Below are positions 3,115 to 64,000 of a stretch of DNA of 64,000 nucleotides, piece by piece; positions within the stretch are counted from its first letter, which is position 1, and every line of letters begins with the position of its first letter. The notes beneath the pieces are model-generated. The model had not been told where the DNA came from. It did no database searches and saw only the letters and a list, made by a program, of their open reading frames with translations. Where the stretch lies: assembly GCA_049297775.1 (NCBI GenBank), contig JBAQUX010000023.1, positions 18 to 64,017 on the forward strand. The letters are read 5' to 3'. Origin of the DNA: Minisyncoccia bacterium. GTDB lineage: Bacteria; Patescibacteriota; Minisyncoccia; Phycocordibacterales; UBA2100. The translations under genes and the position numbers were made by a program.

Positions 3115-3115
3115 A

Positions 3116-4888: not shown

Positions 4889-4891
4889 GGC

Positions 4892-5290
4892 TTACTCGGA
4901 GATTTCTTCTTGTGCTCCAGTGCGTGCGCCACGACCTTGAAATTGTACTGGTATTTCCTCAGAAATTATATCGTCATCGTTACCTACAGGGGCAAAAGGA
5001 TTTTTTCGTCCCACCGGCTCAGGAATAATTTGTTGCCCTGTATCTTTAAGCACATTAAACGCTGGATTTTGAAAAATAGTGTCATCTAGCTTAATTGTAC
5101 GCATATCCAATAGTAACTTGAGCACCTCAGAGTCATCATTATTTTCAGTAACTACCTGGCTATTAAGTACGCCATCTGCAGACGATGTACCGAGAGTGGC
5201 ATTTTCTTCTCCGGAATTCATCGAAAGACCATACCAACCTCCGATGATGACAACGATTACTATGACTGCAATTATTATTTTATTGTTCAT
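4892..5290 (-). CDS. Small single-pass membrane protein, PilP-like pilus-assembly accessory (hypothetical)
   Basis: 132 aa, N-terminal TM helix (IIIAVIVIVVIIGGWYGL), acidic C-terminus. Position between pilO and pilB. Assignment by context only. Confidence 0.4.
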   Translation of the reverse strand: MNNKIIIAVIVIVVIIGGWYGLSMNSGEENATLGTSSADGVLNSQVVTENNDDSEVLKLLLDMRTIKLDDTIFQNPAFNVLKDTGQQIIPEPVGRKNPFAPVGNDDDIISEEIPVQFQGRGARTGAQEEISE

Positions 5291-5301
5291 GGTTCAATAT
5301 A

Positions 5302-5958: not shown

Positions 5959-5971
5959 AATGGTACATTAA

Positions 5972-6787: not shown

Positions 6788-6810
6788 ACGTTTTAATTAT
6801 TCCACATAAT

Positions 6811-7971
6811 TTATCCCTGCTGGATAATGCGCATCGCTGCACCTACCGCAACTGAAAATTCTGGGCCTACTTCTTTAAGTACATCGTGCAAAAATGCTGG
6901 ACCTTCTACGTGATCAAATGGCTGAGCCAATTGGACCTGGGCACCAAGTCTTTCTTGCGCATACGGAATTAAGTCTTTGATAGTCGCACCTCCTCCTGTC
7001 AAAATAACATGAGGTACATTTTTCTGATACTTTTTCCCGTAGTTCAATAATACTTTATGTACCTCTGGGAATATACGTCCGAGTGTTGATAACAATGCGG
7101 TGCGCACTGGAGGCGTCGGCATTGCTGTTCCGGTTCCTGCTTCTTTAGTCATCGGCACGTCAATGCTCAGCCCCTGCTCCTTCTTCATTCGCTCAGCTTT
7201 TTCAAAATCCCAACTCATCGATCTACTAATCGAAAGGGTCATATCTTGGCCACCTTGATTGATGGTATGCGACATGCGTACGATACCTCGCTCAATAATA
7301 GATACTTTTGTTGTTGAGGCACCGATGTCTACAACCATGATTGGTGCAACTCCGTGCCCCAAAGAAGATCGCGCAGTACTGAATATTTCAAGTTCATAAA
7401 ACTGTGGCTGAATATTAAGCCCTTGCATAATTGACTGAAAATTACTGAGTGTGTCGTTATGTATCGCAACGAGTAAAACCTCAATGACATCCTTCTTTCG
7501 CTCTCCCGTATCAGGCTGTGTCGCATTTTCATATTCATCTTTTGGAATAGCAAACCAATCAAGGGAAATTTCATTCATAGGAACTGGAATGTACTTACGA
7601 GCCTCAAGAGGTACGGCACGTTTGAGCGCATCATCGCTCATAGGTGGCAATTCAATAACCGAAGTCAGGCTTGCTGAGAACGGAATAGCGACTCCGGCTA
7701 TAGTAGCCGTCATGTTTGATTCTTTCATGAGGTCCTGAATTGCTTCTCCTATTTTTTGTGCAGGAAGTCGTGCCACTTGCCCAGTCTGCAACTCAGCAAA
7801 TGGACCAAGGGCAATTGCGCCATATGTCTCAAGTATTGCACGACCGTGTTCTCTGCGTAATTGAACAATTTTTACTGAAGATGATCCAATATCTATACCA
7901 AGCACACTCCCAGTACCACCGATGGAAGGCAGTCCACTGAGTCTTTTTGTAATTGCATCAAATAAACCCAT
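6811..7971 (-). CDS. pilM: Type IV pilus assembly ATPase-fold protein PilM (actin-like)
   Basis: N-terminal GIDIGSSSVKIVQL actin/FtsA-like phosphate-1 motif and second half with DIGASTTKVSI. Start taken at MGLFDAITKRL (7971); the ORF track extends to 8025 through non-conserved residues. Confidence 0.85.
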   Translation of the reverse strand: MGLFDAITKRLSGLPSIGGTGSVLGIDIGSSSVKIVQLRREHGRAILETYGAIALGPFAELQTGQVARLPAQKIGEAIQDLMKESNMTATIAGVAIPFSASLTSVIELPPMSDDALKRAVPLEARKYIPVPMNEISLDWFAIPKDEYENATQPDTGERKKDVIEVLLVAIHNDTLSNFQSIMQGLNIQPQFYELEIFSTARSSLGHGVAPIMVVDIGASTTKVSIIERGIVRMSHTINQGGQDMTLSISRSMSWDFEKAERMKKEQGLSIDVPMTKEAGTGTAMPTPPVRTALLSTLGRIFPEVHKVLLNYGKKYQKNVPHVILTGGGATIKDLIPYAQERLGAQVQLAQPFDHVEGPAFLHDVLKEVGPEFSVAVGAAMRIIQQG

Positions 7972-8019
7972 ATAGTAGATGCATTGTACCATACTCACCT
8001 GTAGAATGTTGAGTACACT

Positions 8020-8664
8020 ATGCACTTTTTACGCAAATATATAGCGAGTTTTATCGACTGTGTACTGCCCCCAAGAGAGGCTGAGCTTCAACTGCGTAAA
8101 CTCACACCAAATAACTTTCCATTCATAAAAAGTGAATTCAAAACTGAGAGTGGCATGAGCGTGCTTACACTCTCTGTATTCACCGATGAGCGCGTTCGGC
8201 TCGCTATTCATGAATTAAAATTTCATAAAAATTCTCACGCTGCATCGCTGTACAGCGAAAATGTACATGACGCGCTACAAGAAGTATGCTCAAGAAGTAA
8301 CTTAGAGTATTTAATTGTCCCCATACCTCTTCATAAAAAGAGGTACCGCGCTCGCGGATACAATCAGGTAGTGACTATTATCATGTCTGCGCATTCCAAG
8401 GGTACGGAGCATCCGCTCAACACAATTTTCTCAGCAGACGCACTTACTCGCATTCGCGAAACAAAACCCCAAACAGAACTATCACGCGAGTCTCGTTTAA
8501 AAAATCTACATCACGCCTTTTCCGCTTCGTCTGAAGTGCGTGATAGAAATGTCATTGTTGTTGATGACGTGTACACGACCGGTGCTACATGTGCAGAGGC
8601 ACAGCGAGCACTCATGTACGCAGGAGCACGCAGTGTCACCTGTATTGTTTTGGCAAGGGCTTGA
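8020..8664 (+). CDS. comFC: ComF family protein (ComFC-like phosphoribosyltransferase-fold competence protein)
   Basis: C-terminal PRTase motif VIVVDDVYTTGAT typical of ComF/GntX. Divergent from the pil operon. The real start may be an internal Met (e.g. MSVLTLS at 8155) to leave room for divergent promoters. Confidence 0.75.
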   Translation: MHFLRKYIASFIDCVLPPREAELQLRKLTPNNFPFIKSEFKTESGMSVLTLSVFTDERVRLAIHELKFHKNSHAASLYSENVHDALQEVCSRSNLEYLIVPIPLHKKRYRARGYNQVVTIIMSAHSKGTEHPLNTIFSADALTRIRETKPQTELSRESRLKNLHHAFSASSEVRDRNVIVVDDVYTTGATCAEAQRALMYAGARSVTCIVLARA

Positions 8665-9270: not shown

Positions 9271-9723
9271 ATGTTTACTCAACCAGTAACCCAAGCTTAC
9301 GACCTCACCGACGCCACGTGGGAAATAATTGTAATGCTTACTGTCTCTTTTTTGCTCGGTTGGTTTTTTCGATATCTTTGGTCTCGTACAGATGCTGAAC
9401 AACAGATAGTTTACGTTCCCCAGACACCCGCTGTTCCAGACAGACCTGAACGTTATAGAAAATATTCAGAAAATGATTTACAAATCGTAGAAGGTATTGG
9501 TCCAAAAATTGAAGAACTTTTAAAGACTAATGGTGTATATTCATGGGAAGATTTAGCACGTTCGTCAATTGAGAGTCTCCGTGCCATTCTCCAAAAAGGA
9601 GGTGAGCGCTTCCAAATGCATGACCCGAGTAGCTGGGCTGACCAAGCAGCACTTGCTGTTGAAGGAAAATGGGCGGATTTAGAAGAATATCAAACCCTAC
9701 TTCCCGGCGGACGGATGCGATAA
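9271..9723 (+). CDS. Membrane-anchored helix-hairpin-helix (GIGPK) domain protein, ComEA-like candidate; cassette copy 1, gene B
   Basis: TM helix (IIVMLTVSFLLGWFF) then DLQIVEGIGPKIEELLKTNGVYSWEDLA HhH motif and conserved FQMHD...WA.QA.LA..GKW tail. Paralog of 22254-22718. Confidence 0.65.
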   Translation: MFTQPVTQAYDLTDATWEIIVMLTVSFLLGWFFRYLWSRTDAEQQIVYVPQTPAVPDRPERYRKYSENDLQIVEGIGPKIEELLKTNGVYSWEDLARSSIESLRAILQKGGERFQMHDPSSWADQAALAVEGKWADLEEYQTLLPGGRMR

Positions 9724-9727
9724 CAAT

Positions 9728-9753
9728 AAGGCGCCCTATGGCGCCTTTTGTAA
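9728..9753 (+). terminator. Rho-independent terminator (AAGGCGCC-CTAT-GGCGCCTT + TTTG)
   Basis: 8-bp GC-rich stem, 4-nt loop, U-rich tail directly after the stop of the 9271-9723 gene. Confidence 0.6.
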
Positions 9754-9771
9754 AACTACTCTCGTAAGTGC

Positions 9772-10566
9772 TTACTGTACGGTAATTGTTTTTTGTGACA
9801 CAACTGGCGCCTGAGATACATACCCGCGAATAGTTCTAAAACTCACGGTGTAACTGCCTCGTGATTGATATATGTGTGTAAGTTGTCTATTTATCTGATC
9901 TGACTCACAACCACTATTACCGCCCTCCCGAGATACTATTGGTGAACCATCTCCCCAATCAAGCGAATACGATGTGCAGGTAGTCCCATTTACAGCAAAA
10001 AACGCAGACACCGCATGTGGTGCAGGACCACTTGCAGGTTCGACAGTGAACGAAAAGTTATCTACGGGCGCCACTCCAGTCTTTACCGGAGTACGTGTGG
10101 TTGTTCCTGTACTTGTAGTCTTCGCTTGGGTTACCGAAGTTCCTGACGCACATGCAGCCTTCATAACATCGGCTGTACGTTTATCAATAGAACCTGTAAC
10201 AGATAGGTGTGACAAAAGTTGCCAACGCGAAACTGCATCTTTAGTAATACCTCCATAATATCCAGTACCATACTCATCTGACAAAACGCCTTGTTCAATT
10301 AGAAATCCTTGAAGTGCGATCACATCTTGCCCTGATGCGCCCACTTGTAACGAACGATTCACTGGCAAGCACTCCCCGCTTCCAGTGGTTCCGGTGTTCG
10401 TTCCATCAGGATCAATACCAATTGCTCGGAGTTGCACTTTTATAGCATCGACGATTTTGATAAGCCGAGCAATTTCAGAAAGTATTTCATCTCGTGTCAT
10501 CGCTGAGGTCATAGCGGGCACAACAACAAGCACTGTAATAATAAGGGCTGAAAGTGATTTATACAT
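9772..10566 (-). CDS. Secreted protein: signal peptide + PG_binding_1 domain + C-terminal PKD-like domain
   Basis: N-terminal signal/TM. IALQGFLIEQGVL...GTGYYGGITKDAVSRWQ is a PG_binding_1 motif. C-terminal LDWGDGS...HIY...GSYTV matches the PKD motif (WDFGDG...HxY...GxYxV). Confidence 0.7.
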   Translation of the reverse strand: MYKSLSALIITVLVVVPAMTSAMTRDEILSEIARLIKIVDAIKVQLRAIGIDPDGTNTGTTGSGECLPVNRSLQVGASGQDVIALQGFLIEQGVLSDEYGTGYYGGITKDAVSRWQLLSHLSVTGSIDKRTADVMKAACASGTSVTQAKTTSTGTTTRTPVKTGVAPVDNFSFTVEPASGPAPHAVSAFFAVNGTTCTSYSLDWGDGSPIVSREGGNSGCESDQINRQLTHIYQSRGSYTVSFRTIRGYVSQAPVVSQKTITVQ

Positions 10567-10614: not shown

Positions 10615-11634
10615 TTACCGCACAGTAATCTGCGCCTGATTAATAACTGGTAACTTTGAAAGTACATTTTGTCCCTGTTTCAGCGTAACGGTATAGATGC
10701 CAGGCCTTGTGTACACATGCGGAATATAGAGCGTAATTGCTTTTGCCGTACACGTAGCAGGCTTCCCAGCATCAAATGCTTCAGGTGCTGTGCCATCTCC
10801 CCAACTAATTTCGTATGAAGTACACGTAGTACCATTCACCGCAAACGAAAGGCCAATCGTAAGTGGTGCACTTCCCGACGCAGGCTTTATAAAGAATGAG
10901 TACCGTTCTGATTTTCGCTCTGACCCCGCATTCGCGCCACCACATTTTGCAATCCTGTCTCGCGTCGCACCATTTGTGGTACCACTTTGCGTCAGACCCT
11001 TTGTTCGTTGCCATGACAGCAAAGCTCGCTCAGTTGATGGACCGAACGCTCCTGTAATAAGTGAGGTGCTTAACGTGCCTTCACGAGCAAGGAAACATTG
11101 AAGCGTTGCAACATCTCCGAGTACCCCTTGCGCATCAACTGACCCGCGGGCAATAACATTTGCGATAACTGGGCAATCAGGGACATTTGTGCACGAAACT
11201 AATTTACGTGGAATGATTGGCTCACAGCTTTGATTTTTATTTATATAGGCACGTGTCTTTTCCTCAACAATGCCATATCCAGTTTTACACGATAACCCGG
11301 GCTTTACGATGTTAAACTTTTTTTGTAGTCGCCGCACCGCAAGCTCAGTTTCTTCACTATATTCACCCGTAACTAAACCACTAGGATATAGTGAGGGAAA
11401 ATCACGCAAGTATTTTTGTAACCGAGTTACCTCACCATTTGTAGTACTGTCACTCACACCAAAATAGAGAAGCTCCTTGAAAGCGGGACATTTAGTTTTG
11501 GCATCTTCTGTTGTTGCTGTCTCCTCACCTTTCATTTCAGTTGATTTTCCAGTAACAGGAGCGACTCGTGTTTGCGCAGACACCGTCTGACCGAGAAGCA
11601 CGCATATACATACCGCAAAAAGTATTCGAATCAT
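10615..11634 (-). CDS. Secreted protein: two PG_binding_1 repeats + C-terminal PKD-like domain (paralog of 9772-10566)
   Basis: Signal peptide MIRILFAVCICVLLGQTVSA. LQKYLRDFPSLYPSGLVTGEYSEETELAVRRLQ and VATLQCFLAREGTL...GAFGPSTERALLSWQ motifs. C-terminal ISWGDGTAPE...HVYTRPGIYTVTL PKD signature. Confidence 0.7.
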   Translation of the reverse strand: MIRILFAVCICVLLGQTVSAQTRVAPVTGKSTEMKGEETATTEDAKTKCPAFKELLYFGVSDSTTNGEVTRLQKYLRDFPSLYPSGLVTGEYSEETELAVRRLQKKFNIVKPGLSCKTGYGIVEEKTRAYINKNQSCEPIIPRKLVSCTNVPDCPVIANVIARGSVDAQGVLGDVATLQCFLAREGTLSTSLITGAFGPSTERALLSWQRTKGLTQSGTTNGATRDRIAKCGGANAGSERKSERYSFFIKPASGSAPLTIGLSFAVNGTTCTSYEISWGDGTAPEAFDAGKPATCTAKAITLYIPHVYTRPGIYTVTLKQGQNVLSKLPVINQAQITVR

Positions 11635-11691
11635 GAAGTAAGTATCGCATGCATTAGTACGCAATCAATTACCACACTGTTTATAATAGGA

Positions 11692-13925: not shown

Positions 13926-13986
13926 ACAACAAAGTATACTCGAATAAATGAGGAAGCACGTAGCGAAACGCTGCCTCTAGTCTTTG

Positions 13987-14071
13987 CGGAGAGAGTGAGA
14001 TTCGAACTCACGGTTCCTTGCGGAACGACGGTTTAGTAAACCGTTGATTTAAACCACTCATCCATCTCTCC
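13987..14071 (-). tRNA. Type II (long variable arm) tRNA, Ser-like, apparent anticodon ACU (unusual)
   Basis: Minus-strand sequence GGAGAGA-TG-GAT-GAGTGGTTTAA-ATC-A-ACGGT-TTACTAA-ACCGT-CGTTCCGCAAGGAACCG-GTGAG-TTCGAAT-CTCAC-TCTCTCC-G. 7-bp acceptor, 3-bp D stem, canonical T loop GTTCGAATC, long variable arm, G73 discriminator as in tRNA-Ser. Anticodon loop U33-ACU-A37. CCA not encoded. Confidence 0.7.
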
Positions 14072-14139: not shown

Positions 14140-14231
<92 letters not shown>

Positions 14232-25485: not shown

Positions 25486-27687
25486 TTACTTACCGTTTAT
25501 CACTCGATAGAAACCATGTGCAGCTGATGCTGTCTGTTGCATGATGCTTTCAGTACCGGACAAGAGACCGACTACACGGTGCCAGAGGTATGCCGAGGTG
25601 TCCTCGTCAACAACAATATTCTTTGTAGTTGAAAGAGTCTGCGCAATATCACTTCTTCCAGAAGTAAGTTTGAGCGTGAAATTACCCACGGTTGTATATG
25701 AGTGTGAGAATGATTTCTCAACCAAGCTAGACGTGTGAGTGGTACCACACGCAGGAAGTGTCACACTGTGCGTAGTTGGCGCAGTACTGTCTCCCCAGTC
25801 AATGGTATAAGTTGCTGTAGCTGCAGCGGATGCAGAACATGATTGATCTGCCTTGAAGCTTGCTGTTGCTGTCATCGGCTTAAAACCAAATGTTGGGCTT
25901 ACCGTAAGTGTTGGCGCTCCAAGATTTACACCACTTGTTGCGTCATAACTATATGTACCATTACTTGCACGGTATTTTACGGTGCGTGAACCAGAGTCAG
26001 TATATACGTGTGTCAACACTTGCTGAGTAATTGTTTGTCCAAGTGGGATATCATTTACACAACGTGTCGGTGTAAATTCATATACAGATGTCTCTGACGC
26101 GTCGCCCCAATCAACGGTATAGCGTCGTGAGTTAGCATTACCAAGAGAACAGCTTGTATCCACATCAAATGTAGCTTTTGCAGTCGCAGGTGCATATGCG
26201 CCGTCGCGAGGAATGACTGCAAATTTTGGTGTATCTACAGTAATTTGAGCTGAGCCCACATTCTGAACTGCGCCTGATGGTCGCAATTCAACTGTGTAAT
26301 TCCCTGTTTTTGTATACGTATGAGGTATGTCGCGAACAGTTGAACGTGTTTCCCCGATAGGAATATGGATGGTGTATTTTTGTGAGTTATCTCCAAAATC
26401 TACTTCAAAGTTTGATGCTGTTGATGTTGGTGCGATTTCTGTGTGGATGTTAACGGCGAGTGGGGCGATACCACGAGTATTTGAGACAGTAATTGGTGTG
26501 CCACCTGATGTACCGAGCTGAGTCACCGCAAAATTACCTGACTCCGTTACCAATACAACACTTGCACGCTTGTCATCTGCTCCACAGAAGTCGATACAGC
26601 CGTCGGCTGGCGTGTACATTGCTGCACGAATTTTGTAACTTCCTGTAGGCATTTGTACTGAACAGGTGTTACCGTCACAGACACCATCACCTACTATCCA
26701 ATCAAACTCACTCGAACGCATACTTCGCTTCGCGAATGAGTATGTTTGTGTCGGACCAACAACATAAAACGCTATAGCTGAATCTGTTGGGTAGTTACCA
26801 GTAGTCCATTTAATTTTTGTTAAATCACCAAGGCGAACAGAGCTACCTGCGGATGGAGAATCCATACGAAGATACGGCTCACCTTTTGCAATTTGTATTG
26901 AGCGAGTCAACAACTTAGGTAAACCACTGCGAGGTCCCTTTCCTGCTTTAAGTGTTGCAATGTATGTTCCTGCACTTGTATATGTATGTTGGAGTGTTCT
27001 CTCTGAAATTCCTGAGCCACACACCGTTGATTGTGGAGCCTCGAAAACTGTTGGATCTGTTTTATCTCCCCAATCTACTTCATATGACACACATGCCGTA
27101 TCTAAGGTAGAAAGCTTTATACGCGCGTCATATGGTGCTGTACCAGATGATTGGTCAAAGGCAAAGTTAACTACTTGTGCAGCAGAAGTTCCTGTTCCCG
27201 TTCCCGTTCCCGTTCCCGTTCCTACAGTACTTGTACCAGTATCACCGCTACATGCAGAAGCAAGTACCAGTCGTGTACGTGTACCTACAAGTCCGTAACC
27301 TGTGGTGTCCGCAGTCCCCGCAACGGCAATACCGTGACGCTCCTGAAAACGTTGCACCGCGCGCTCTGTCGCAAAACCAAAAAATCCTGAAGCGGTTCCC
27401 TCTGGATAAATATTTGCATCTCGTGCCAAATACGATTGCAGTGCCAAAACATCTGAACCTTTTGATCCACGGCGAAGCATGCGAGTAATCTTTGGACAGC
27501 CACTGACTGATCCTGAACCAACATCTGTTGTGCCCAATTGCGCCTTAAGACTGTTAATTTGATTCAGGACACTTTTAAGCTGATTTTGTAAATCCGTCGC
27601 TGTATCTGCTGTAGCAAATGGAACAGTGCCGGTGAGGACAGTAACACACAATGTAAGCGCTATTAAAAAACGGGTACTACGGTTCAT
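25486..27687 (-). CDS. Large secreted protein: signal peptide, PG_binding_1 domain, (Gly-Thr)n linker and multiple PKD-like repeats
   Basis: Start at MNRSTRFLIALTLCVTVLTG (27687). VLALQSYLARDANIYPEGTASGFFGFATERAVQRFQ PG-binding motif, then GTGTGTGTGTGTGTS linker. Repeated xxDWGD...H.Y...G.YT blocks: YEVDWGDKTDP, FEVDFGDNSQ, YTVDWGDASE, YTIDWGDSTA. Confidence 0.7.
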   Translation of the reverse strand: MNRSTRFLIALTLCVTVLTGTVPFATADTATDLQNQLKSVLNQINSLKAQLGTTDVGSGSVSGCPKITRMLRRGSKGSDVLALQSYLARDANIYPEGTASGFFGFATERAVQRFQERHGIAVAGTADTTGYGLVGTRTRLVLASACSGDTGTSTVGTGTGTGTGTGTSAAQVVNFAFDQSSGTAPYDARIKLSTLDTACVSYEVDWGDKTDPTVFEAPQSTVCGSGISERTLQHTYTSAGTYIATLKAGKGPRSGLPKLLTRSIQIAKGEPYLRMDSPSAGSSVRLGDLTKIKWTTGNYPTDSAIAFYVVGPTQTYSFAKRSMRSSEFDWIVGDGVCDGNTCSVQMPTGSYKIRAAMYTPADGCIDFCGADDKRASVVLVTESGNFAVTQLGTSGGTPITVSNTRGIAPLAVNIHTEIAPTSTASNFEVDFGDNSQKYTIHIPIGETRSTVRDIPHTYTKTGNYTVELRPSGAVQNVGSAQITVDTPKFAVIPRDGAYAPATAKATFDVDTSCSLGNANSRRYTVDWGDASETSVYEFTPTRCVNDIPLGQTITQQVLTHVYTDSGSRTVKYRASNGTYSYDATSGVNLGAPTLTVSPTFGFKPMTATASFKADQSCSASAAATATYTIDWGDSTAPTTHSVTLPACGTTHTSSLVEKSFSHSYTTVGNFTLKLTSGRSDIAQTLSTTKNIVVDEDTSAYLWHRVVGLLSGTESIMQQTASAAHGFYRVINGK
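27191..27222. repeat. Hexanucleotide microsatellite (CCCGTT)x5 inside CDS, encoding (Gly-Thr)n on the minus strand
   Basis: cctgtt cccgtt cccgtt cccgtt cccgtt cc. The in-frame 6-nt unit corresponds to the GTGTGT linker of the 25486-27687 protein. Confidence 0.8.
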
Positions 27688-27780
27688 ATATATGTATTGT
27701 ATACCCTGCATAGAAAAAAGTGGAGTTTCGTGTGCACAGTAGTCCGTTTCTCTCGCAAGGCTCTCAAGCCTAAGCAAATA

Positions 27781-27948: not shown

Positions 27949-27957
27949 AAATAAAGG

Positions 27958-28031
27958 TCCACCCTCTTGGACTCGAACCAAGGACCGCGGAGGTATAAGC
28001 TCCGTGCTCTAACCAACTGAGCTAAGGGTGG
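27958..28031 (-). tRNA. tRNA-Ile (anticodon UAU)
   Basis: CCACCCT-TA-GCTC-AGTTGGTTA-GAGC-A-CGGAG-CTTATAC-CTCCG-CGGTC-CTTGG-TTCGAGT-CCAAG-AGGGTGG-A. Anticodon loop C-U-UAU-A-C. CCA not fully encoded (ACCT). Confidence 0.8.
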
Positions 28032-55180: not shown

Positions 55181-56734
55181 TTAATGTTTGAAGTGACGGA
55201 TGTGTGTAAAGACCATAGCCATATCACGCTCGTCAGCAGCGGCAATCACCTCTACATCTTTCAACGACCCTCCAGGCTGAATAACCGCTGTGGCTCCTGC
55301 AGCATGCGCCGCGATGACACCATCCGGGAACGGAAAGAACGCATCACTCGCAAGGGCGCTTCCCTGAAGGGAAAGGCCTACATCATTCGCTTTGGTAACG
55401 GCAATGCGTGTAGAATCAATCCGACTCATCTGTCCAGCACCGATGCCAAGTGTCTGATGTTCATTTGCGAATATAATCGCATTTGATTTAACATGATGCG
55501 CAATTTTCCACGCAAATAACAACGCGCGCATCTCTGCTTCACTTGGGACTCGTTTAGAAACTACAGTGACATCTTCAACATGTAATTCTTTGTTATCTGG
55601 TGTCTGGGCAACGTAACTTTCTGCTCCGACACTACGTACACGAATAGTCGTATCTCGAGGGTCTTTACGTAAGACCATAAGACGTAGGTTTTTCTTCTTA
55701 GTAAGCACGGCAAGTGCCGTATCAGTAAATCCGGGTGCAATGATTACTTCAGAAAAAATTTCACGTATTTCGAGCGCGAGAGATTCGTCGACACACACAT
55801 TTACTGCAATAATTCCTCCAAATGGTGCCTGAGTATCTGTTGCAAATGCGCGCCTCCACGCCTCTACTGACGTGCTTCCTGTTCCTACACCACAAGGGTT
55901 CATGTGTTTAAGAATAACTACTGTTGGTGCCCCGTCTGTAAATTCGAGCATTATCTCAGTTGCAGCAGTTAAATCCAAAATATTATTATAGGACAATTCT
56001 TTACCGTGAAGCTGTTGGTAATACTCATTGAATTTCCCATAGAGCCCTGCACTTTGGTGAGGGTTTTCTCCGTAACGCAGCACTTGAATTTGTGGCGAAA
56101 ACACCGTCAACTCTGTGGGTATACGCGCCTCTGTTTCTGCAAAGTACCTTGCAATAGCTGCATCGTAGGTGGCAGTCGTTGCGAAGACTTTTCCTGCGAG
56201 GCGTATACGCGTTTCATACGTCGTACTCCCTGTTATGCCAATTTCTTGTAACACGTTCTTGTAGTCACTGGGGTCAACGACAACTGTAACTGCATCGAAG
56301 TTTTTTGCCGCACTGCGAAGCATCGCGGGACCACCGATATCAATATGTTCGATTATTTCTTCATGTGTTGCATCCTTTTTTGCACGCGTACTTTCGAATG
56401 GGTACAAATTTACCACCAGTAAATCAATTGGCGGGATATTGTTCTCTGCTACAGTACTTTCGTGACTTGCAACTCCACGCTTATAGAGTAGCCCCCCATG
56501 TACTTTTGGGTGTAGTGTTTTAACACGACCTTCAAGCATCTCAGGGTATTTGGTGTATTCTGCAATTTCTGTAACCGGTATGCCTGCTTTTGAAAGTGTT
56601 TGCGCGGTACCACCCGTTGAGAGCAACTCGATACCTGCGTCATGTAACGATTTCGCAAATGGAACAATGTCCGTCTTATCGAATACGGAGATGAGTGCTC
56701 TCTGTATGCGATATGGCGTATGTTCTTTTTTCAT
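55181..56734 (-). CDS. purH: Bifunctional AICAR formyltransferase / IMP cyclohydrolase
   Basis: N-terminal MGS-like domain (RALISVFDKTDIVPFAKSLHDAGIELLSTGGTA). C-terminal AICARFT domain ending ...VFTHIRHFKH. Start MKKEHTPY (56734); its start abuts the stop of the upstream gene. Confidence 0.9.
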   Translation of the reverse strand: MKKEHTPYRIQRALISVFDKTDIVPFAKSLHDAGIELLSTGGTAQTLSKAGIPVTEIAEYTKYPEMLEGRVKTLHPKVHGGLLYKRGVASHESTVAENNIPPIDLLVVNLYPFESTRAKKDATHEEIIEHIDIGGPAMLRSAAKNFDAVTVVVDPSDYKNVLQEIGITGSTTYETRIRLAGKVFATTATYDAAIARYFAETEARIPTELTVFSPQIQVLRYGENPHQSAGLYGKFNEYYQQLHGKELSYNNILDLTAATEIMLEFTDGAPTVVILKHMNPCGVGTGSTSVEAWRRAFATDTQAPFGGIIAVNVCVDESLALEIREIFSEVIIAPGFTDTALAVLTKKKNLRLMVLRKDPRDTTIRVRSVGAESYVAQTPDNKELHVEDVTVVSKRVPSEAEMRALLFAWKIAHHVKSNAIIFANEHQTLGIGAGQMSRIDSTRIAVTKANDVGLSLQGSALASDAFFPFPDGVIAAHAAGATAVIQPGGSLKDVEVIAAADERDMAMVFTHIRHFKH

Positions 56735-56735
56735 A

Positions 56736-58097
56736 TTACCAATTAATTTCAAACGATTCCTTCTCTTGTGGGGCAACTGTTTCAATCCCCATAAAATCAT
56801 GTACGCGTTGTGCCAAAAATTGAGCAGCGCGAGGTTCACCCATAATTACAAAAACTTTTTCTAGAGATTTTTCTGACTGCCCGATAAAATCCATTAAGCC
56901 ATCCCTGTCTGCGTGCCCAGAATACCCATGGATAGTCTCAATTCGCGCACGCGCCTTTACCCATTCCTCCCCGAACTTCAACTTCTTTTGTCCTTCTTGT
57001 ATGCGCCTACCTAATGTACCTGGCGCTTGGAAACCAACAAACAAAATTGTGGTATTTGCGTCACTAATGAGCGCCTGCTCATGGCTCACTACTCTCCCCC
57101 CAACAGACATCCCAGAACCAGCAATAATAATTTTAGGATTGTTTGTATGCTGAATAAGTTCTGACGAATGACCGTTTTTGATAATCGATAGTTTTGGAAA
57201 AGCAAAGACGTCATCTCCTCCTTGAATTTGTTTTTTTACGACATCGTTAAAGTGTCTCGTTGCCCCTTGATATATTTCGGTTGCTTTTGCGGCAAGCGGT
57301 GAGTCAAGAAATACTGGAATTTGTGGAATTTCTTGTGATTCAACCATGTTATTAATCTCGAGCAACAGTGACTGCGTTCTGTGAACCGCAAATGACGGTA
57401 TGAGTAAGCATCGCTTGTGCGCAATTGTGTCAATAATAATATTTTTGAACAACTCTGTACGTTGCTCCCTGTCATCGTGCAACCTGTCACCGTAGACACT
57501 CTCAGTAACCATAAATTGCGCATCGGATATTGCTTCTGGATGAGGCAAGAGCACGTCTGGACTATTGCCGATGTCACCAGTACACACGAGCTTCTTTCCG
57601 TGACGCACAAAGTGCACTGCGCCAGCGCCTAGGATATGACCCACTGGAGTCATATGAGCAACAACACCATCCTTCAAGTGCACCTGCTCGTTAAATGAAA
57701 TTTCTTTCCAGAGCGACAAAGCTTTTTGTACATCTGCATGCGTATATAAAGGCTTAATGCCATATTTTTTTTCATGGTCTTCAAATATTTTTAGCGAGTC
57801 TTCGAGTACCAGTGCTGCTATGGCTTTGGTCTCATGCGTAGAGTAAATGACCCCTGAAAATCCCTCGTGTGCAATTTTAGGCACCCGACCTACGTGGTCT
57901 GCGTGTGCATGAGTAATAAAAAGTACATCCATAGTGCTCGGGTCATATGCAAACTTCTCAGCGTTTTTTTCATCAGTTTCTTCAGATGATCCTTGATGAA
58001 GCCCACAATCAACGAGTATTTTTTGTGTTTCAGTTTCAATACAAATGTTTGCGCCAGTTACTTCCCCTGCCCCGCCGAAAAATGTAAGTTTAGCCAT
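56736..58097 (-). CDS. MBL-fold beta-CASP family hydrolase (RNA-metabolising metallo-beta-lactamase, RNase J/CPSF-like)
   Basis: FFGGAGEVTGANICIETE..., HAHADHVG (HxHxDH), beta-CASP insert and C-terminal His motif (GHADRD). 453 aa. Confidence 0.75.
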   Translation of the reverse strand: MAKLTFFGGAGEVTGANICIETETQKILVDCGLHQGSSEETDEKNAEKFAYDPSTMDVLFITHAHADHVGRVPKIAHEGFSGVIYSTHETKAIAALVLEDSLKIFEDHEKKYGIKPLYTHADVQKALSLWKEISFNEQVHLKDGVVAHMTPVGHILGAGAVHFVRHGKKLVCTGDIGNSPDVLLPHPEAISDAQFMVTESVYGDRLHDDREQRTELFKNIIIDTIAHKRCLLIPSFAVHRTQSLLLEINNMVESQEIPQIPVFLDSPLAAKATEIYQGATRHFNDVVKKQIQGGDDVFAFPKLSIIKNGHSSELIQHTNNPKIIIAGSGMSVGGRVVSHEQALISDANTTILFVGFQAPGTLGRRIQEGQKKLKFGEEWVKARARIETIHGYSGHADRDGLMDFIGQSEKSLEKVFVIMGEPRAAQFLAQRVHDFMGIETVAPQEKESFEINW

Positions 58098-58931: not shown

Positions 58932-59525
58932 TTAATATCCGAGACGCTTGTAATCAAATATTCTGTCTGTTCCTTCAAACCAATGCTCAATCTCATGCGC
59001 TGCTTCCTCTGGAGTCTCTGACGCATGCAGAATGTTCATAACTGCACGCTTTTCAGCATTGGCAATCGCTGCTGAATCTGCAGAGAAATCTCCGCGAATT
59101 GTTCCCATGTCTGCCAGTGATGGCATGGTAGGGCCTGCGATTTTTCTGACCATATCAACGGCGTGTACTCCTTCCACAACCATGCGTACCAGTGGCGCAG
59201 ATGTCATGAACTCAAGAAGCCAGCCGCGAACCATTTTGCCTAATTCAAGCGGATTAGCAGTGCCCATTTCTGTTTGAGCATCGATGCCATACTTCTCGTA
59301 GATAGCAAGAGTCTTCTCACCTAAACGCTGTATCCACGCCTCAGTCTTTGGATAATGATCATTCATTTTATCGTACGTAGGCATAAACATCTCAAGCGCC
59401 ACGATTTTTAGGTCACGCCGCTCAAAACGGTTAATTATTTCTCCAATGAGTCCCTTGCGCACCCCATCAGGTTTAATAAGTACAAATGTCTTTTCTTCTT
59501 TTAATCTTTTTGCTGTATGTGACAT
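58932..59525 (-). CDS. ndk: Nucleoside diphosphate kinase with C-terminal extension
   Basis: FVLIKPDGVRKGLIGEIINRFERRDLKIVALE (NDK signature IKPDGV...RGL.G.I..RFE), followed by the active-site His region. 197 aa, longer than the typical ~140 aa. Confidence 0.75.
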   Translation of the reverse strand: MSHTAKRLKEEKTFVLIKPDGVRKGLIGEIINRFERRDLKIVALEMFMPTYDKMNDHYPKTEAWIQRLGEKTLAIYEKYGIDAQTEMGTANPLELGKMVRGWLLEFMTSAPLVRMVVEGVHAVDMVRKIAGPTMPSLADMGTIRGDFSADSAAIANAEKRAVMNILHASETPEEAAHEIEHWFEGTDRIFDYKRLGY

Positions 59526-59576: not shown

Positions 59577-60626
59577 CTATTGGGAAGGTGTCGTCATACC
59601 CTTAGTTTCCTCAGCCCGTTTAATCATAGTTGTGGTGTACACGTCCAGATTTGGACCAATAGCCTTTTCGGCAAGCTCAGCATAGTAACTATACATAATG
59701 TGCGGAAACGTTTGTCGTCTCTCAGTTATTGGATTATGTGTGGTTGCATACATTGCGAGACATCCGAATCTGTCTTCAGGGTCTACATCAAGTGATTCGC
59801 TGGCTTTCTGAAGTTGAAATTGCTCAAACATCTGGAGAAATTCTTCTCGTAAATTGAGTGTAAAAATACCCGCGACATCTTGTGATATTTCAAAGAACTC
59901 AAGAGGAAGAAATTTTTCGTCAACTCGTGTCCCCACAAACCCCTCACCTATCCCGTTTAAATCGTGATGGGCGTTCACATGCATAAAAGCTGCGTCGGTG
60001 ATAAATCGCTCGCCATCTTTCAATAGCTGTACATATTCTTCTTGAGACGGCGCGCGTCCAAACTGCCGCTGAAAAATGATTGGAATACTTCGTACGAGCC
60101 CCCAAGAATATTTTGATGCTGTGTTGATACCGCCAATCAAAAACGCTTCCATCGAGTTTACGTCCGCCTTATCTTCTGTAACCTCACGTATTTGTTCACG
60201 TAAATGGAGCACACGATGCGTTAACTGCTCATATGTATATTGTCCGAGAGTGGCATTTTCATGCTGAGCAGCTGAGAAAACCCTTCGTGCAACGTTCGCA
60301 AACGAATTTTGAAATGCAGCGCTTACTCCTGCAGGATCAGATTTCATGCTTTCTACAATCTGTTCTTCATGCATCGGTATGCGTATCTGAGTTCCGGTAT
60401 ACCAGGCGCGGCGCTCTCTATCACGCGCAAGTAATTCAGTAAATTTTGGACCGAGTGATTCAAGTACTGCCGCACCAATTCTATACATCTCTCGTTTAAT
60501 ATCAGTCGCTGACCTTTCACGCATAGGCTTCATCGTATGAGGGAGCCCGTCGTTTAAATCTTTTTTAGCTCGCAATAACCCAGTTCCGTGAGTAGTCCCG
60601 ACATTAAGGCGATCACGCTGTTTCAT
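59577..60626 (-). CDS. Hypothetical protein (349 aa), co-oriented and adjacent to the large ATPase
   Basis: No recognised motif. 12-nt spacing to the upstream 946-aa ATPase gene suggests co-transcription. Confidence 0.4.
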   Translation of the reverse strand: MKQRDRLNVGTTHGTGLLRAKKDLNDGLPHTMKPMRERSATDIKREMYRIGAAVLESLGPKFTELLARDRERRAWYTGTQIRIPMHEEQIVESMKSDPAGVSAAFQNSFANVARRVFSAAQHENATLGQYTYEQLTHRVLHLREQIREVTEDKADVNSMEAFLIGGINTASKYSWGLVRSIPIIFQRQFGRAPSQEEYVQLLKDGERFITDAAFMHVNAHHDLNGIGEGFVGTRVDEKFLPLEFFEISQDVAGIFTLNLREEFLQMFEQFQLQKASESLDVDPEDRFGCLAMYATTHNPITERRQTFPHIMYSYYAELAEKAIGPNLDVYTTTMIKRAEETKGMTTPSQ

Positions 60627-60638
60627 GCAAGCACTATA

Positions 60639-63479
60639 CTAGAATCTAGCAAATGGGTCCATCATGCGTGGGTCGGGAGCAGCTGGCATGTACCGTGCCT
60701 GAATTTCATTTTCAACCTCAAGTCTATCCCGACCAAACGTCTCGTATGCATGCTTTTTGAGCGCTTCAATCTGATGATAATCTGCATCTTTTGGTGGCAA
60801 TGTCTCCATGTTAAATGGCTTTGCAGGATACCCATCTATAAGGAGTGAGAGGTACGCGTTTCTATTCTCAAGGCCAGTAATATCTTTTGCCATAAATTCA
60901 GGCTTGAATGTTTTCTCAAGAAATTCTGCGTCTTCGACACCCACGCGGAATACACACTTGGTGCCGACGTTACCAAACACCGCGTCGCGAATTTTTTCAT
61001 CTAGTTGTTTAATGAACTGGTGTGCTACATGGAGCGCGAGACCGTACTTACGTGCTTCTGACAAAATGGTTGAGATTGATGGAGTCGTAAAGTTCTGGAA
61101 TTCATCGATGTATAAATAGAATGTAGGAAGCTTGCCTGGTTCACTATCTGCGCGTGAGAGTGCAGCTTGAGTAATTTTCCCAACAATAAAGAGACCCAGA
61201 ATACTTGCGTTCATGTCACCCAAACGACCTTTCGAAAGGTTAGCAAGGAAAATTTTCTTGCCGTCCATAATCTCACGGAAGTTAAATGATGAGTGTGGCT
61301 GCGCCAGTATTGGACGCATAATATCGTTTGCCAAGAAGATGTCCGTTTTCGATGTAATGTACGGCACGACGTTTTCAAGTGATGCTTCCCCACCAGCCTT
61401 CTCGGCTACTTCAACCCAAAACTGATTGATGATTGGATTTTTACACTTTGCGATACAATCTTTTCTAAAACGAGAGTTAGACAAGACACGAGGAATGTCA
61501 GCAAGTGTTGCGGTTCCTGGCTCCTGACCCTCAAGAACAAGCATCGCTCCATTTCTAAAATATTGTTGAAACATAGGTCCAAGCGACTCCGGGACTGAAC
61601 CAAAAAGCTTCTCAAAGATACTGAATATTTCGTTTACAACGAATGTTTTTTGCTCAGGATAATTTGGGTCATACTCCATCATGTTGAGGCCCATCGGACG
61701 GTCCGCGTATGCAGGGTCAAAATAAATGACATCTTTATGACGCTCTGGAGGAATTGAACCCAAGATATCAACGATATCAGAACCGTGCGGGTCGATATAG
61801 CACACTCCATCGCCATTCATAATATCTTGCACTATCATGTTTTTAAGGAGTGTTGATTTACCGGTACCAGTCTGACCAATAGCGTAGAAGTGTCTTAGAC
61901 GGTCAGATTTTGGCCCAGGCTGACCACCAAACTTAATAGGTATATTACCACCACCAAACTTGTTTACACCAAGTGTGATGCCATTATCCGGCATACCCAC
62001 AGGGGCAGGTGATTGCTTTGCTTTTGAGAACTTCAATTCACGTGAGGTAGAGACTCCAGTAGCAGTTAAGTGACACATGGTAGTGAGCTCCGCAATAGAA
62101 AGAGGTGCGATACTATTTTGTGAAAATGTTCTGAAGGTGAATGCACGGACAAATTCTGACAATGCCCTCCCCTTTACTAACTCGAACGCAAAGTGGTTCC
62201 CTTGCGCTTCATCAAACTGGTTAAATGTGGAAGCAATCGAATGAACAATTTCATCTGCGCGGTGCTTATCTTTCGCAGAGGCGATAATGCGTATATTTGT
62301 GGGAACAATGCGACTTGCTGCTTTTGCGGTGATTTGTTCGACTGAGACTTGGTCAATAGTTTTATTGTCATCATGGCTTGAAAACATAAAACTTTTCAGT
62401 TCGTGCATCACGAGACCTATAAGCGAATCTACTTTTTTAATCGCTTTTTTTGCAGAACCACCTTTACGCACCTCATCAAGAATTTTTTTAAACCGATAGT
62501 TATAATTATCGCCTTCGTTACCTATCACAAACTGTATCGCCGCACCTTCACCATGTTTTGCCATTTTTGAAAACGACGATAACACCACGTTTAGTGGGTC
62601 ATGCTGAAAATGTTTGTAGAGCTTTATCGGGTACGCAGGGTGGTTAGCGAGATGCGCATAGGCACCAGACTCATGTCCGTCAGGATGGAAAATATTGTAA
62701 TCATCTTGTACTTCAGTAATACGAGCTCCAGGGTAAATCGAAAGTAGATGCTTCTCAAATGTTCCTCGTTTTTCTTTAGGCACACTCACATAGAAGACTA
62801 CTTCCTCAGAACCTTGAGCTACTGCCATCTCGACAGTAAATATATTCTCGCGTGACGAGCGGTCACCTTCTGCCATTGACCGCATTCCTGCAAAAAATTG
62901 CTCCATCGAGTTTAATATTTTTTCTAGTTCAACTTGTTTAGTTTGATCGTCGCGGTCACTAGAAATTGAAACCTCAAACAAAACCATGTGGAGTGAGCGC
63001 CACACTTCTCCTTTACCTGAAAGACCTCTCGCAGGAAGGCCTTGCGCAATATATTGCACAAGGACACGATGGAAATCATCTTCAAGGTGAGAGCCAATGC
63101 GAGTCGCGATGGCGAGCGCGTTTTTGATTCCTTTCTCTGTCATGAGCTTTATAAGCTCATCTACCTGCACATCGTGAGTTTCTTTTTTGAGTCCGAGTGC
63201 CATACCCGTTGATTCGTACTCAGGTACTGCATATTTTGGCGCAAGCACTTCATGTGTTGGCTTTGCAGCATATTGCTGAATTTCATGCTGAATAATTCTA
63301 TGGGTATCAGGAGATGAAGGACCGGCACCAAGCGCTTTCTCATGAGCGTCTATACGTGAGCGTAAGTACTTTAACTCTTCTTCCATTGAAGAAAAATGAG
63401 TTGGGCCATGCTGAGGAATTTTTTCTGACATGCTTCTAGTATACCGCGCAAAATATTTCCTGTACCGCTCCCTGTACAC
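60639..63479 (-). CDS. Large P-loop ATPase with C-terminal VirD4/TraG/TraD-like (AAA_10/TrwB-type, HerA-FtsK superfamily) domain and ~520-aa N-terminal extension
   Basis: Walker A AIGQTGTGKSTLLKNM, Walker B FYLYIDEFQNF, coupling-protein motif RKYGLALHVAHQFIKQL (TraG/VirD4 R.YG....Q...QL). No TM helices. 946 aa. Possible start MSEKIPQ (63431). Confidence 0.6.
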   Translation of the reverse strand: MYRERYRKYFARYTRSMSEKIPQHGPTHFSSMEEELKYLRSRIDAHEKALGAGPSSPDTHRIIQHEIQQYAAKPTHEVLAPKYAVPEYESTGMALGLKKETHDVQVDELIKLMTEKGIKNALAIATRIGSHLEDDFHRVLVQYIAQGLPARGLSGKGEVWRSLHMVLFEVSISSDRDDQTKQVELEKILNSMEQFFAGMRSMAEGDRSSRENIFTVEMAVAQGSEEVVFYVSVPKEKRGTFEKHLLSIYPGARITEVQDDYNIFHPDGHESGAYAHLANHPAYPIKLYKHFQHDPLNVVLSSFSKMAKHGEGAAIQFVIGNEGDNYNYRFKKILDEVRKGGSAKKAIKKVDSLIGLVMHELKSFMFSSHDDNKTIDQVSVEQITAKAASRIVPTNIRIIASAKDKHRADEIVHSIASTFNQFDEAQGNHFAFELVKGRALSEFVRAFTFRTFSQNSIAPLSIAELTTMCHLTATGVSTSRELKFSKAKQSPAPVGMPDNGITLGVNKFGGGNIPIKFGGQPGPKSDRLRHFYAIGQTGTGKSTLLKNMIVQDIMNGDGVCYIDPHGSDIVDILGSIPPERHKDVIYFDPAYADRPMGLNMMEYDPNYPEQKTFVVNEIFSIFEKLFGSVPESLGPMFQQYFRNGAMLVLEGQEPGTATLADIPRVLSNSRFRKDCIAKCKNPIINQFWVEVAEKAGGEASLENVVPYITSKTDIFLANDIMRPILAQPHSSFNFREIMDGKKIFLANLSKGRLGDMNASILGLFIVGKITQAALSRADSEPGKLPTFYLYIDEFQNFTTPSISTILSEARKYGLALHVAHQFIKQLDEKIRDAVFGNVGTKCVFRVGVEDAEFLEKTFKPEFMAKDITGLENRNAYLSLLIDGYPAKPFNMETLPPKDADYHQIEALKKHAYETFGRDRLEVENEIQARYMPAAPDPRMMDPFARF

Positions 63480-63526
63480 AAAAGGCGCACTATTTGTGCG
63501 CCTTTTTTCTACTCTTCTAGAGTGCG

Positions 63527-63949
63527 TTAATATACGTACATTGATTGTGACGTCACTACTTCATACGGATATACAGTGTTTTTTATACTAATAGTATATG
63601 TTCCCGGTGAACTGTAATAGTGCGTGTAACTATTATATTGATACCCACATGCTGTTGTACCCGAGTTTGGTGTCGAAATACTTGTTGTTTGCCCGTCACC
63701 ATATTCAAGAATGAGTGAACTTGGAATTGAACACTGGGAACCGGCCGTTGGAGTACGTGCGGAAACATTTACCATATACGGAGAGCCGGCGTATCCATCC
63801 GATGTAACAGTAAGAAGTGCCGTAAAGCTACTGCCACCACCACCCGATGCGGCACCAATAGTAAATGGGCTACTTTCACGAGTCGCAAGGATCTGTGAAC
63901 CTGATACCTGCTGACAGTATCCCCAGCAATAATTGTATGGTGTATACAT
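63527..63949 (-). CDS. PKD-like domain secreted protein, C-terminal portion
   Basis: LILEYGDGQTTSI...YTHYYSSPGTYTISI matches the PKD motif; Gly/Ser/Thr-rich. The N-terminal limit is uncertain near the window end. Confidence 0.45.
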   Translation of the reverse strand: MYTPYNYCWGYCQQVSGSQILATRESSPFTIGAASGGGGSSFTALLTVTSDGYAGSPYMVNVSARTPTAGSQCSIPSSLILEYGDGQTTSISTPNSGTTACGYQYNSYTHYYSSPGTYTISIKNTVYPYEVVTSQSMYVY

Positions 63950-64000
63950 AATTGCACGGATTACATATTGTCTCCCCGGAACGATTTGCGAACTACAGAG

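Follow-up and report, generated by a model that had tools for sequence, protein, structure and literature searches.

Type IV secretion systems (T4SS) of the Patescibacteria, the candidate phyla radiation (CPR), were recently surveyed across 3,035 genomes and found to be nested within the monoderm MPF-FATA class (MPF, mating-pair formation) (PMC12102498, 2025). VirB4 was detected in 2,417 of these genomes (80%) and homologues of the VirD4-type type IV coupling protein (T4CP) in 2,918 (96%). Only 148 of the 5,713 T4CP homologues lie near virB4, relaxases occur in only 103 genomes, and the authors considered an exaptation of the T4CP homologues possible. Here we analysed one T4CP-like ATPase gene, located near the end of a 64,000-nucleotide stretch (the window, meaning the whole stretch analysed) of contig JBAQUX010000023.1 from a Minisyncoccia bacterium (assembly GCA_049297775.1). 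Its product is very probably a catalytically intact, soluble member of a distinct T4CP lineage typified by the domain of unknown function DUF8128, and the gene a core gene of the Parcubacteria. T4CP-like ATPases as such are known. The DUF8128 family has already been given an NCBI name, a PHROG and a Pfam DUF, and its abundance in the CPR is on record from bulk counts. Four features seem not to have been described so far: the combination of a VirB4-like N-terminal fold with a VirD4-like motor, loss of the transmembrane (TM) anchor, a helical module that is either fused or split off, and the fixed position between map and ndk. The survey cited above describes neither the DUF8128 architecture nor the ribosomal-operon synteny, and a literature search for 'DUF8128' found no paper.

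Architecture of the DUF8128 ATPase

The gene and the segments of its product are listed below. Residues are numbered throughout on the 930-aa form of the protein.

60639..63431, (-) strand: coding sequence for the 930-aa DUF8128-type T4CP-like ATPase; start codon ATG, stop codon TAG (60639-60641)
63222..63431, (-) strand: variable helical N-terminal segment, residues 1-70, specific to the long form
63024..63215, (-) strand: conserved helical module, residues 73-136, motif HD.Q.DEL...GIKNAL...HLEDDFHR.LV
62052..63014, (-) strand: DUF8128 core, alpha/beta N-terminal domain, residues ~140-460 (Foldseek, Pfam)
60792..61979, (-) strand: T4CP-type P-loop ATPase domain, residues ~485-880 (Pfam, PDB sequence matches, Foldseek)
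61854..61877, (-) strand: Walker A, GQTGTGKS, residues 519-526 (alignment of 94 sequences)
61101..61115, (-) strand: Walker B, LYIDE, residues 773-777 (alignment of 94 sequences)
61002..61052, (-) strand: RKYG...AHQ...QL motif, residues 794-810, shared with TrwB

The original prediction, made from the DNA sequence alone, described a VirD4/TraG-like coupling-type ATPase with a long N-terminal extension in place of TM helices, and placed Walker A, Walker B and an R.YG...Q..QL motif in its C-terminal half. Pfam, PDB sequence and fold matches bear this out. The motifs are present and, in an alignment of 94 homologues, the following residues are invariant: G519, Q520, T521, G522, G524 and K525 of Walker A; Y774, D776, E777 and F778 of the Walker B region; and R794, K795, Y796, A803, H804, Q805, Q809 and L810 of the third motif. 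The last aligns to GRKAGL...GLQSTSQL of TrwB with the spacing found in TrwB. Judged by the invariance of its catalytic residues, the ATPase should be catalytically intact.

Profile searches, which had been proposed as a check, gave a divided answer. The Pfam models TraG-D_C (30.1 bits, cut-off 22) and TrwB_AAD_bind (27.9 bits, cut-off 20.5) matched above their cut-offs, whereas AAA_10 (E 0.014, 14.9 bits against 27.5) and DUF87 (19.6 against 23.2) stayed below; CagE_TrbE_VirB gave no match. T4SS-DNA_transf scored 12.1 bits in the 930-aa protein, below its cut-off, compared with 45.2 bits over 330 residues in a short-form homologue. By Pfam, the motor falls on the VirD4 side, most clearly in the short forms. 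The NCBIfam models VirB4_CagE (17.4 bits against 643) and helicase_HerA (12.5 against 970) were far below their cut-offs. In a sequence search of the PDB, TrwB and DotL were the only solved structures matched. An AlphaFold2 model built with the 94 homologues as input had a predicted local distance difference test score (pLDDT) of 86.8, and its C-terminal domain aligned to TrwB in Foldseek over ~460 columns (E 1.6e-11) with a target-normalized template-modelling score (TMt) of 0.62-0.65 (~0.63). Between Walker A and Walker B, a helical insert in the model (residues ~594-723) corresponds to the all-alpha domain of TrwB. No TM helix was found in the ATPase: the highest 19-residue Kyte-Doolittle mean was 1.37, with no segment at or above 1.6, and a TM segment is absent whichever start codon (GTG or ATG, see below) is taken.

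The ~520 N-terminal residues, initially regarded as unknown sequence, turned out to belong to a catalogued family, Pfam PF26449 (DUF8128). The 930-aa protein is 100% identical to NCBI protein P0001, a 'TraM recognition domain-containing protein' of the Minisyncoccia metagenome-assembled genome (MAG) GCA_049296875.1, whose precomputed Pfam domains are PF26449, PF10412 and PF12696. PF26449 is likewise listed for nearly all homologues; this assignment is a precomputed annotation, and PF26449 did not appear among the matches up to E = 1 from our own Pfam copy. DUF8128 is followed here by a TraG-D_C-type ATPase, the architecture that marks the PF26449 family. The domain order is a variable helical N-terminus, a 65-aa helical module, the DUF8128 alpha/beta domain and a TrwB/VirD4-like nucleotide-binding domain with its helical insert. 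Residues 1-70, with helices at 16-34 and 42-56, are the least conserved part of the protein (0.30-0.43) and are missing from short forms. The helical module, by contrast, has the invariant residues H86, D87, G101, N104, H115, D118 and D119 in the 94-sequence alignment. We considered a catalytic metal site of the HD type (H86, D87, H115, D118, D119) and rejected it, because versions of the module encoded by separate small open reading frames (ORFs) retain only D118 and H121.

Fold comparison linked the N-terminal half to VirB4. With the full-length model, the best Foldseek alignment was to TrwK, the VirB4 of R388 (~900 columns, E 4e-15). Structure prediction of the N-terminal region, another of the checks first suggested, was done as a separate AlphaFold2 model of residues 1-482 (pLDDT 76.7), and its sole matches at E<1e-3 were 10 TrwK/VirB4 chains, the best at 3.9e-5 over ~410 columns. 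At the sequence level, the N-terminal half showed no link to any PDB chain, to VirB4 or to TrsD. A relationship of DUF8128 to TrsD, a VirB4-N-terminal-like protein abundant in the CPR, was rejected since hhalign against TrsD of pSK41 came back empty. A sequence link to VirB4 was likewise discarded: hhalign was negative with a Bacillus plasmid VirB4 and, with TrsE, found the C-terminal domain only. The architecture modelled here is therefore best described as a putative VirB4-like N-terminal domain, alike at the level of fold only, followed by a VirD4-like motor.

In a BLASTP matrix, the long and short CPR forms, a Streptomyces protein, Bacillus plasmid proteins and a phage protein formed one coherent group (54-1100 bits), which scored at most 38 bits against VirB4s and against TrsK, the VirD4 homologue of pSK41. 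Profile comparison of the ATPase family gave matches to both the C-terminal domain of TrsE (VirB4; E 3.6e-6) and TrsK (E 4e-5). Because the group is coherent yet distant from VirB4s and TrsK, and its profile matches both, the DUF8128 family constitutes a distinct branch of the VirB4/VirD4 assemblage on these comparisons. The soluble ATPase itself belongs to the VirB4/VirD4 branch of the FtsK-HerA superfamily.

Membership in this superfamily raises the question of whether the ATPase functionally replaces FtsK/SpoIIIE as a chromosome translocase at the division site. A weak FtsK_SpoIIIE match at Walker A and the occurrence of TM-anchored short forms near division and cell wall (dcw) or other division genes in three loci are in its favor. 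This match, however, is confined to Walker A and, at 13.1 bits, falls short of the cut-off of 24. FtsK gamma-domain families do not occur among the Pfam matches listed up to E = 1, the long form is devoid of TM segments, and most Patescibacteria bins have been reported to encode FtsK/SpoIIIE (PMC10469934). We therefore regard such a replacement as highly improbable. The original prediction had named two findings that would speak against it, namely an FtsK assignment with a TM domain at a corrected start and a conjugative element nearby. Neither was seen, since FtsK_SpoIIIE is below cut-off, no TM segment is present at either start and no conjugative element lies nearby.

Occurrence, synteny and neighboring genes

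The description of the ATPase as an 'orphan' did not survive the database searches. A word-indexed search returned more than 746 homologues. The best 120 of them are 757-1031 aa long (mostly 900-990), are 49-75% identical and span 85% or more of the query (65% in one fragment), and every source name given is Patescibacteria/Parcubacteria. The N-terminal half alone matched 916 clusters at 50% identity among 1.84 billion representatives. When one genome per GTDB species was scanned, at least 453 genomes carried the ATPase; lineages named in their record titles include Kaiser-, Nomura-, Campbell- and Taylorbacteria, Paceibacterota and '(uncultured) Saccharibacteria'. A few titles give only 'bacterium' or 'uncultured bacterium', and the organism-specific ones are all Patescibacteria. 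Many of the loci L011-L088 are titled 'uncultured Candidatus Saccharibacteria bacterium' despite a syntenic gene of the Parcubacteria type; these titles may be generic CPR labels and not denote true Saccharibacteria, because the closest relatives here are Kaiserbacteria and Paceibacterota.

Five independently annotated contexts share the gene order spc operon ...L15-SecY-(gmk)-adk-map-[ATPase]-ndk-...-beta-CASP RNase-...-IF3/L35/L20. We quantified this synteny by tblastn on 80 species loci, taking as denominators the loci with enough flanking sequence. On the same strand as the ATPase gene, map lies 5' in 63 of 73 loci and ndk 3' in 56 of 66, directly adjacent (<=200 nt) in 34 of the 66. Genes inserted between map and the ATPase gene are of the housekeeping kind: PurD in 31 loci, a LOG-family gene and similar. 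Around the ATPase locus the guanine-plus-cytosine (GC) content is uniform (0.43-0.44). Given the conserved synteny and flat GC content, the ATPase is a vertically inherited, syntenic core gene of the Parcubacteria/Paceibacteria and not part of a mobile element. That it might nevertheless be the remnant of an integrated conjugative or mobile element is suggested by family homologues on plasmids and phages. We hold this to be extremely improbable in view of the uniform GC content, the lack of a flanking integrase, relaxase, tRNA or repeat, the synteny kept across orthologues of 40-70% identity and the invariant catalytic residues. No second copy of the ATPase gene was found in the 64-kb window. 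The statement that the window holds no relaxase, VirB or Tra genes was confirmed by tblastn and by Pfam analysis of large ORFs: elsewhere in the window there are no homologues of VirB4, VirD4, relaxase, PrgI or TrsD.

The immediate surroundings of the ATPase gene are as follows.

63527..64000, (-) strand: 3' end of an 837-aa PG_binding_1/PKD surface-protein gene, which continues past the window end
63476..63502, (-) strand: terminator-like hairpin GGCGCAC-AAATA-GTGCGCC (stem-loop 63502-63484) followed by TTTTGTGT, read from the sequence, with its function inferred
63432..63479, (-) strand: 16 extra codons of the GTG-start ORF, probably untranslated
59577..60626, (-) strand: 349-aa lineage-specific ORFan, starting 12 nt after the ATPase stop
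58932..59525, (-) strand: ndk (nucleoside-diphosphate kinase), PF00334, the conserved downstream neighbor

Both ORFs that the original prediction combined, the ATPase and the 349-aa ORF, exist on the (-) strand 12 nt apart. The predicted ATPase length of 946 aa corresponds to a real ORF in the open reading frame list, which begins at GTG 63479 (60639..63479, (-) strand), but the start codon needs to be revised. By our reading of the sequence, GTG 63479-63477 lies inside the T-tract of the terminator-like hairpin, and ATG 63431 agrees with both the NCBI start call and the N-termini of homologues; the most likely start is consequently ATG 63431, giving 930 aa. The hairpin is 3' of the PKD-domain gene and directly 5' of the ATPase gene (a scan tool reported the same stem-loop at 63485-63499 and gave it as + strand), and a TATACT box can be read 6 nt before the ATPase ATG. 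Together, hairpin and box suggest that the ATPase gene may be transcribed as a separate unit beginning with a very short leader. Sequence similar to the 837-aa PKD/PG-binding gene was present in just 6 of 80 related loci; this gene is a lineage-specific insertion between map and the ATPase gene. Other PG_binding_1 and/or PKD proteins, probably at the cell surface like the one at 63527-64000 (-), are encoded at 25486-27777 (-) and 10615-11664 (-).

The 349-aa ORF has coding-like codon usage (+0.22 bits/codon in frame, compared with -0.45 and -0.72 out of frame). Its product had exactly one match, at 99% identity, among 5.8 billion proteins, no Pfam, PADLOC or PHROG match, and no resemblance to the hypothetical neighbors found at other loci. 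A match to MbeD (18 bits, cut-off 60) was taken as chance. The gene is absent from 80 of 80 related loci, and next to a 72%-identical ATPase orthologue, from which it is also absent, ndk lies directly 3' of the ATPase gene. The 349-aa gene is thus an unrelated strain-specific insertion and not a conserved partner; of the pairing first proposed, the adjacency is real and the conserved partnership is not. For annotation, this neighbor should not count as part of a system.

These results also bear on the idea that the ATPase and a co-transcribed 349-aa protein form a two-gene system for DNA processing or transfer, possibly tied to DNA uptake by type IV pili (T4P). The 12-nt spacing on one strand, the native codon usage of the 349-aa gene and a T4P cluster in the same window are compatible with it. 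With a single near-identical match to the 349-aa protein in 5.8e9, its absence from the related loci, and T4P genes that are more than 50 kb away and unlinked to the ATPase in any related locus, it must be considered exceedingly improbable. The earlier statement that the genome encodes a T4P is correct, and nothing links the ATPase to T4P or competence genes. The T4P cluster occupies 372-8025 (-) and comprises PilM (6811-8025), PilB with MshEN (3116-4888), a response regulator (2725-3114), a PilT-like ATPase (1589-2695) and PilC (372-1583), all (-), as well as three small ORFs without Pfam match that are PilN/O/P-like by position.

A role in anti-phage defense, as a component like Mad8 of the MADS system or a HerA-like ATPase, was also considered. 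The PADLOC model mad8 matches the ATPase domain with E 4.2e-16 (residues 529-876), and there are weak HerA matches. The similarity is nevertheless confined to the ATPase domain, and no mad gene, methyltransferase or nuclease is adjacent, the neighbors being ndk, the PKD surface protein and the 349-aa ORF without PADLOC match. Conserved housekeeping synteny and near-universal presence are, moreover, unlike what is seen for defense islands. A defense function therefore seems scarcely probable.

Other observations in the window concern gene calls and tRNAs. Downstream of ndk, the PurH ORF taken from its first GTG (55181-56839 (-), 552 aa) has a 104-nt overlap with the upstream beta-CASP/RNase J-like gene (56736-58097 (-)); as the NCBI call for PurH is 517 aa, the start of the mechanically called ORF probably lies too far 5'. 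ARAGORN identified a tRNA-Ile with anticodon TAT (UAU) at 27956-28031 (-). Such a tRNA is an uncommon bacterial route to reading AUA, for which the usual one is a lysidine-modified CAU tRNA. ARAGORN also found two divergent tRNA-Ser genes 70 nt apart, at 13986-14071 (-) and 14140-14231 (+), with anticodons ACT and GCT; an A34 tRNA-Ser alongside the standard GCU tRNA-Ser looks odd.

Short forms and relatives outside the CPR

Short relatives of the ATPase, ~790-840 aa in length, lack residues 1-135 and are 37-43% identical to the long form over the DUF8128 core and the ATPase domain. Three of them (L007, L091 and L092) differ from the long form: like canonical T4CPs, they bear one TM helix at the N-terminus, and their conserved context is FtsQ-PMT-x-[ATPase]-GtrA-DnaX or, among dcw genes, MraZ-RsmH-FtsI...[ATPase]...RmuC. 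In L007 and L091, a small ORF (9574-9999, 141 aa, and 5605-5997, 130 aa, respectively) ends 1-3 nt before the ATPase start. The C-termini of these small ORFs read ...KGLNQAIQQARKTKNPYVIDRVHDELV... in L007 and ...KSLEYSVDVAKKTNDPLLIDLYHDIL... in L091, and they align to residues 73-136 of the long form (GIKNAL...HLEDDFHR.LV; hhalign E 2.1e-5, probability 77%, 65 columns). The short form of L008 has no TM helix and carries the same module fused at its own N-terminus; as expected from this fusion, no module was found in the small ORF upstream of it. Because some genomes encode the helical module as part of the ATPase and others as a gene of its own, it can be regarded with moderate confidence as a functional partner of the motor that serves in docking or as an adaptor. 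This applies to few loci: the small ORF of L007 has no database homologues, so that the case for fusion or fission is built on two loci and L008.

Outside the CPR, tblastn matched 678 plasmid records, all below 60% identity and mostly from Bacillus (358) and Streptomyces (76). A B. subtilis plasmid encodes an 885-aa 'DUF87 domain-containing protein' that is homologous over the DUF8128 core and the motor (hhalign probability 99.8%, E 1.9e-27, 657 columns) and has no TM helix. Its gene lies directly 5' of a Replic_Relax relaxase gene; the operon also contains conjugal-transfer genes and encodes VirB4 as a separate protein (AAA_10 E 8e-116). A second Bacillus plasmid has the same arrangement plus TcpD- and TcpE-like genes. 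We excluded that the Bacillus plasmids matched are those of the pLS20 family: the T4CP of pLS20 has two TM helices, which indicates a different plasmid family. The Streptomyces homologue (BLASTP E 5e-55) is found in the order 767 aa - PrgI (VirB3) - VirB4 - [homologue] - 166 aa - NlpC/P60+SLT hydrolase. This cluster, an apparent monoderm T4SS, occupies positions 3456-13874 of L090, an unannotated record of Streptomyces sp. BHT-5-2 replicon p1, a 2.8-Mb linear 'plasmid'. From the Bacillus and Streptomyces gene orders, the DUF8128 family occupies the T4CP slot in monoderm T4SS clusters.

These homologues share the DUF8128 core and the ATPase domain with the CPR protein, and the Bacillus proteins are soluble as well. 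They differ from it in that identity is only 24-28% and the N-terminal helical module is lacking. Their genes form part of plasmid-borne conjugation/T4SS clusters in which VirB4 is encoded separately, in contrast to the chromosomal CPR gene with its housekeeping neighbors. Phages carry a further set of homologues, including phrog_5156 (E 5.9e-83, PHROG) and gp156 of Bacillus phage G (E 9e-39, tblastn). Together with the protein of the phage-plasmid 0105phi7-2, these are homologous to the CPR ATPase from residue ~149 to 913. The 0105phi7-2 homologue, a 'DNA helicase or translocase', adjoins genes for ParA and a RepB-primase in the one case inspected.

Role of the ATPase and comparison with known systems

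Our preferred reading, to which we would give a little less than an even chance, is that the ATPase serves as substrate receptor or motor for a chromosomal, relaxase-less T4SS encoded elsewhere in the genome. We prefer it because the ATPase is homologous to genes in the T4CP slot, the CPR T4SS descends from MPF-FATA, and TM-anchored relatives exist. By analogy to TrwB/VirD4, the ATPase would probably form a hexameric ring that, powered by NTP hydrolysis, delivers its substrates, DNA or protein, to a membrane channel. The fused helical module might then replace the N-terminal TM anchor that short forms still bear, and act as a docking or adaptor element.

A number of observations weigh against a T4SS-associated role or against the T4CP assignment behind it. 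There are no T4SS genes in the window or in the ~90 related loci examined, and the 930-aa protein is missing the TM anchor. The NCBIfam T4CP models all scored far below their cut-offs (SXT_TraD 36.7 bits against 366, conju_CD1115 26.1 against 250). For the VirB4-like fold, the query-normalized template-modelling score (TMq) of the N-terminal model against TrwK is low (0.30-0.34, on a model of pLDDT 77). Of the Patescibacteria genomes surveyed, 96% have T4CP homologues but only 80% VirB4, and Ca. Southlakia epibionticum needed its T4SS, but not its t4cp homologue, for epibiotic growth (both PMC12102498). Finally, phage and phage-plasmid homologues evidently work without a T4SS.

Alternatively, the ATPase could be an exapted T4CP, a T4SS-independent housekeeping translocase or remodeller of DNA or nucleoprotein that acts, for example, in replication or recombination, on imported DNA or in nucleoid segregation. 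We place this second, as a possible, if not a probable, alternative. Apart from the higher frequency of T4CP homologues than of VirB4 and the dispensability of the one in a Saccharibacterium for epibiotic growth (PMC12102498), it draws on the strictly housekeeping position at the tail of the ribosomal superoperon before ndk, on short forms beside division and replication genes (MraZ-RsmH-FtsI, FtsQ, DnaX, RmuC, DnaB), and on the phage and phage-plasmid homologues that lack a T4SS, one of them next to ParA/RepB. Since CPR genomes are small and dense, however, adjacency to housekeeping genes is weak evidence. Furthermore, there is no conserved DNA-processing partner, the inserts between map and the ATPase gene being PurD, LOG and similar genes, and the closest cellular homologues outside the CPR are all found in T4SS clusters. 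MAG incompleteness could account for part of the gap between 96% and 80%.

A bolder version, which we think unlikely, combines this role with the unusual architecture. DUF8128 ATPases would be a third, hitherto uncharacterised lineage beside VirB4 and VirD4, with a VirB4-like N-terminus, a VirD4-like motor and an adaptor module either fused or encoded separately. In Parcubacteria, one copy would have become established in the ribosomal superoperon as a T4SS-independent core translocase of DNA or nucleoprotein, for example for imported or replicating DNA near gmk, adk and ndk. Compared with either alternative, the receptor or motor of a T4SS encoded elsewhere remains the reading we favor. The notion of an undescribed system, put forward in the original prediction, is weakened in any case: T4CP homologues far from virB4 had already been counted (2,918 of 3,035 genomes; PMC12102498) and homologues of the ATPase sit in the T4CP slot of Gram-positive T4SS.

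T4CP-like genes, reported from 96% of genomes, rank with the most widespread genes related to secretion in the CPR. They are nearly always far from T4SS genes, and relaxases are largely absent. The features of the DUF8128 ATPases offer handles for asking whether these proteins feed a T4SS used by CPR bacteria in host interaction or represent a conjugation motor recruited for housekeeping, and their architecture bears on the divergence of VirB4 and VirD4.

Among the systems described, the HerA/DUF87 helicases are unlike the ATPase in that the DUF87 and HerA models score below cut-off and NurA or another nuclease is not encoded next to it. VirB4 proteins such as TrwK of R388 and TrsE of pSK41 resemble it in being soluble and in joining an N-terminal alpha/beta domain to a C-terminal RecA-like ATPase, but they show no N-terminal sequence similarity and at most 38 bits in BLASTP, and the ATPase has no VirB3 or VirB6 neighbors. 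The short TM-anchored DUF8128 ATPases have the same helical module, as an upstream small ORF (L007, L091) or fused (L008). Canonical T4CPs differ from the ATPase by their N-terminal TM anchor, in place of which it has an extra N-terminal region of ~480 aa (module and DUF8128); TrsK of pSK41 gave no BLASTP match and was aligned by hhalign over only 128 columns. Neither in the window nor at the related CPR loci is the ATPase accompanied by relaxase or T4SS genes, as only its distant Bacillus and Streptomyces homologues are. Nonetheless, the ATPase shares with the T4CPs (VirD4, TrwB of R388, TraD, TraG and DotL) a P-loop nucleotide-binding domain with a helical insert, and its Walker A, Walker B and RKxG...Q..QL motifs are spaced as in TrwB.

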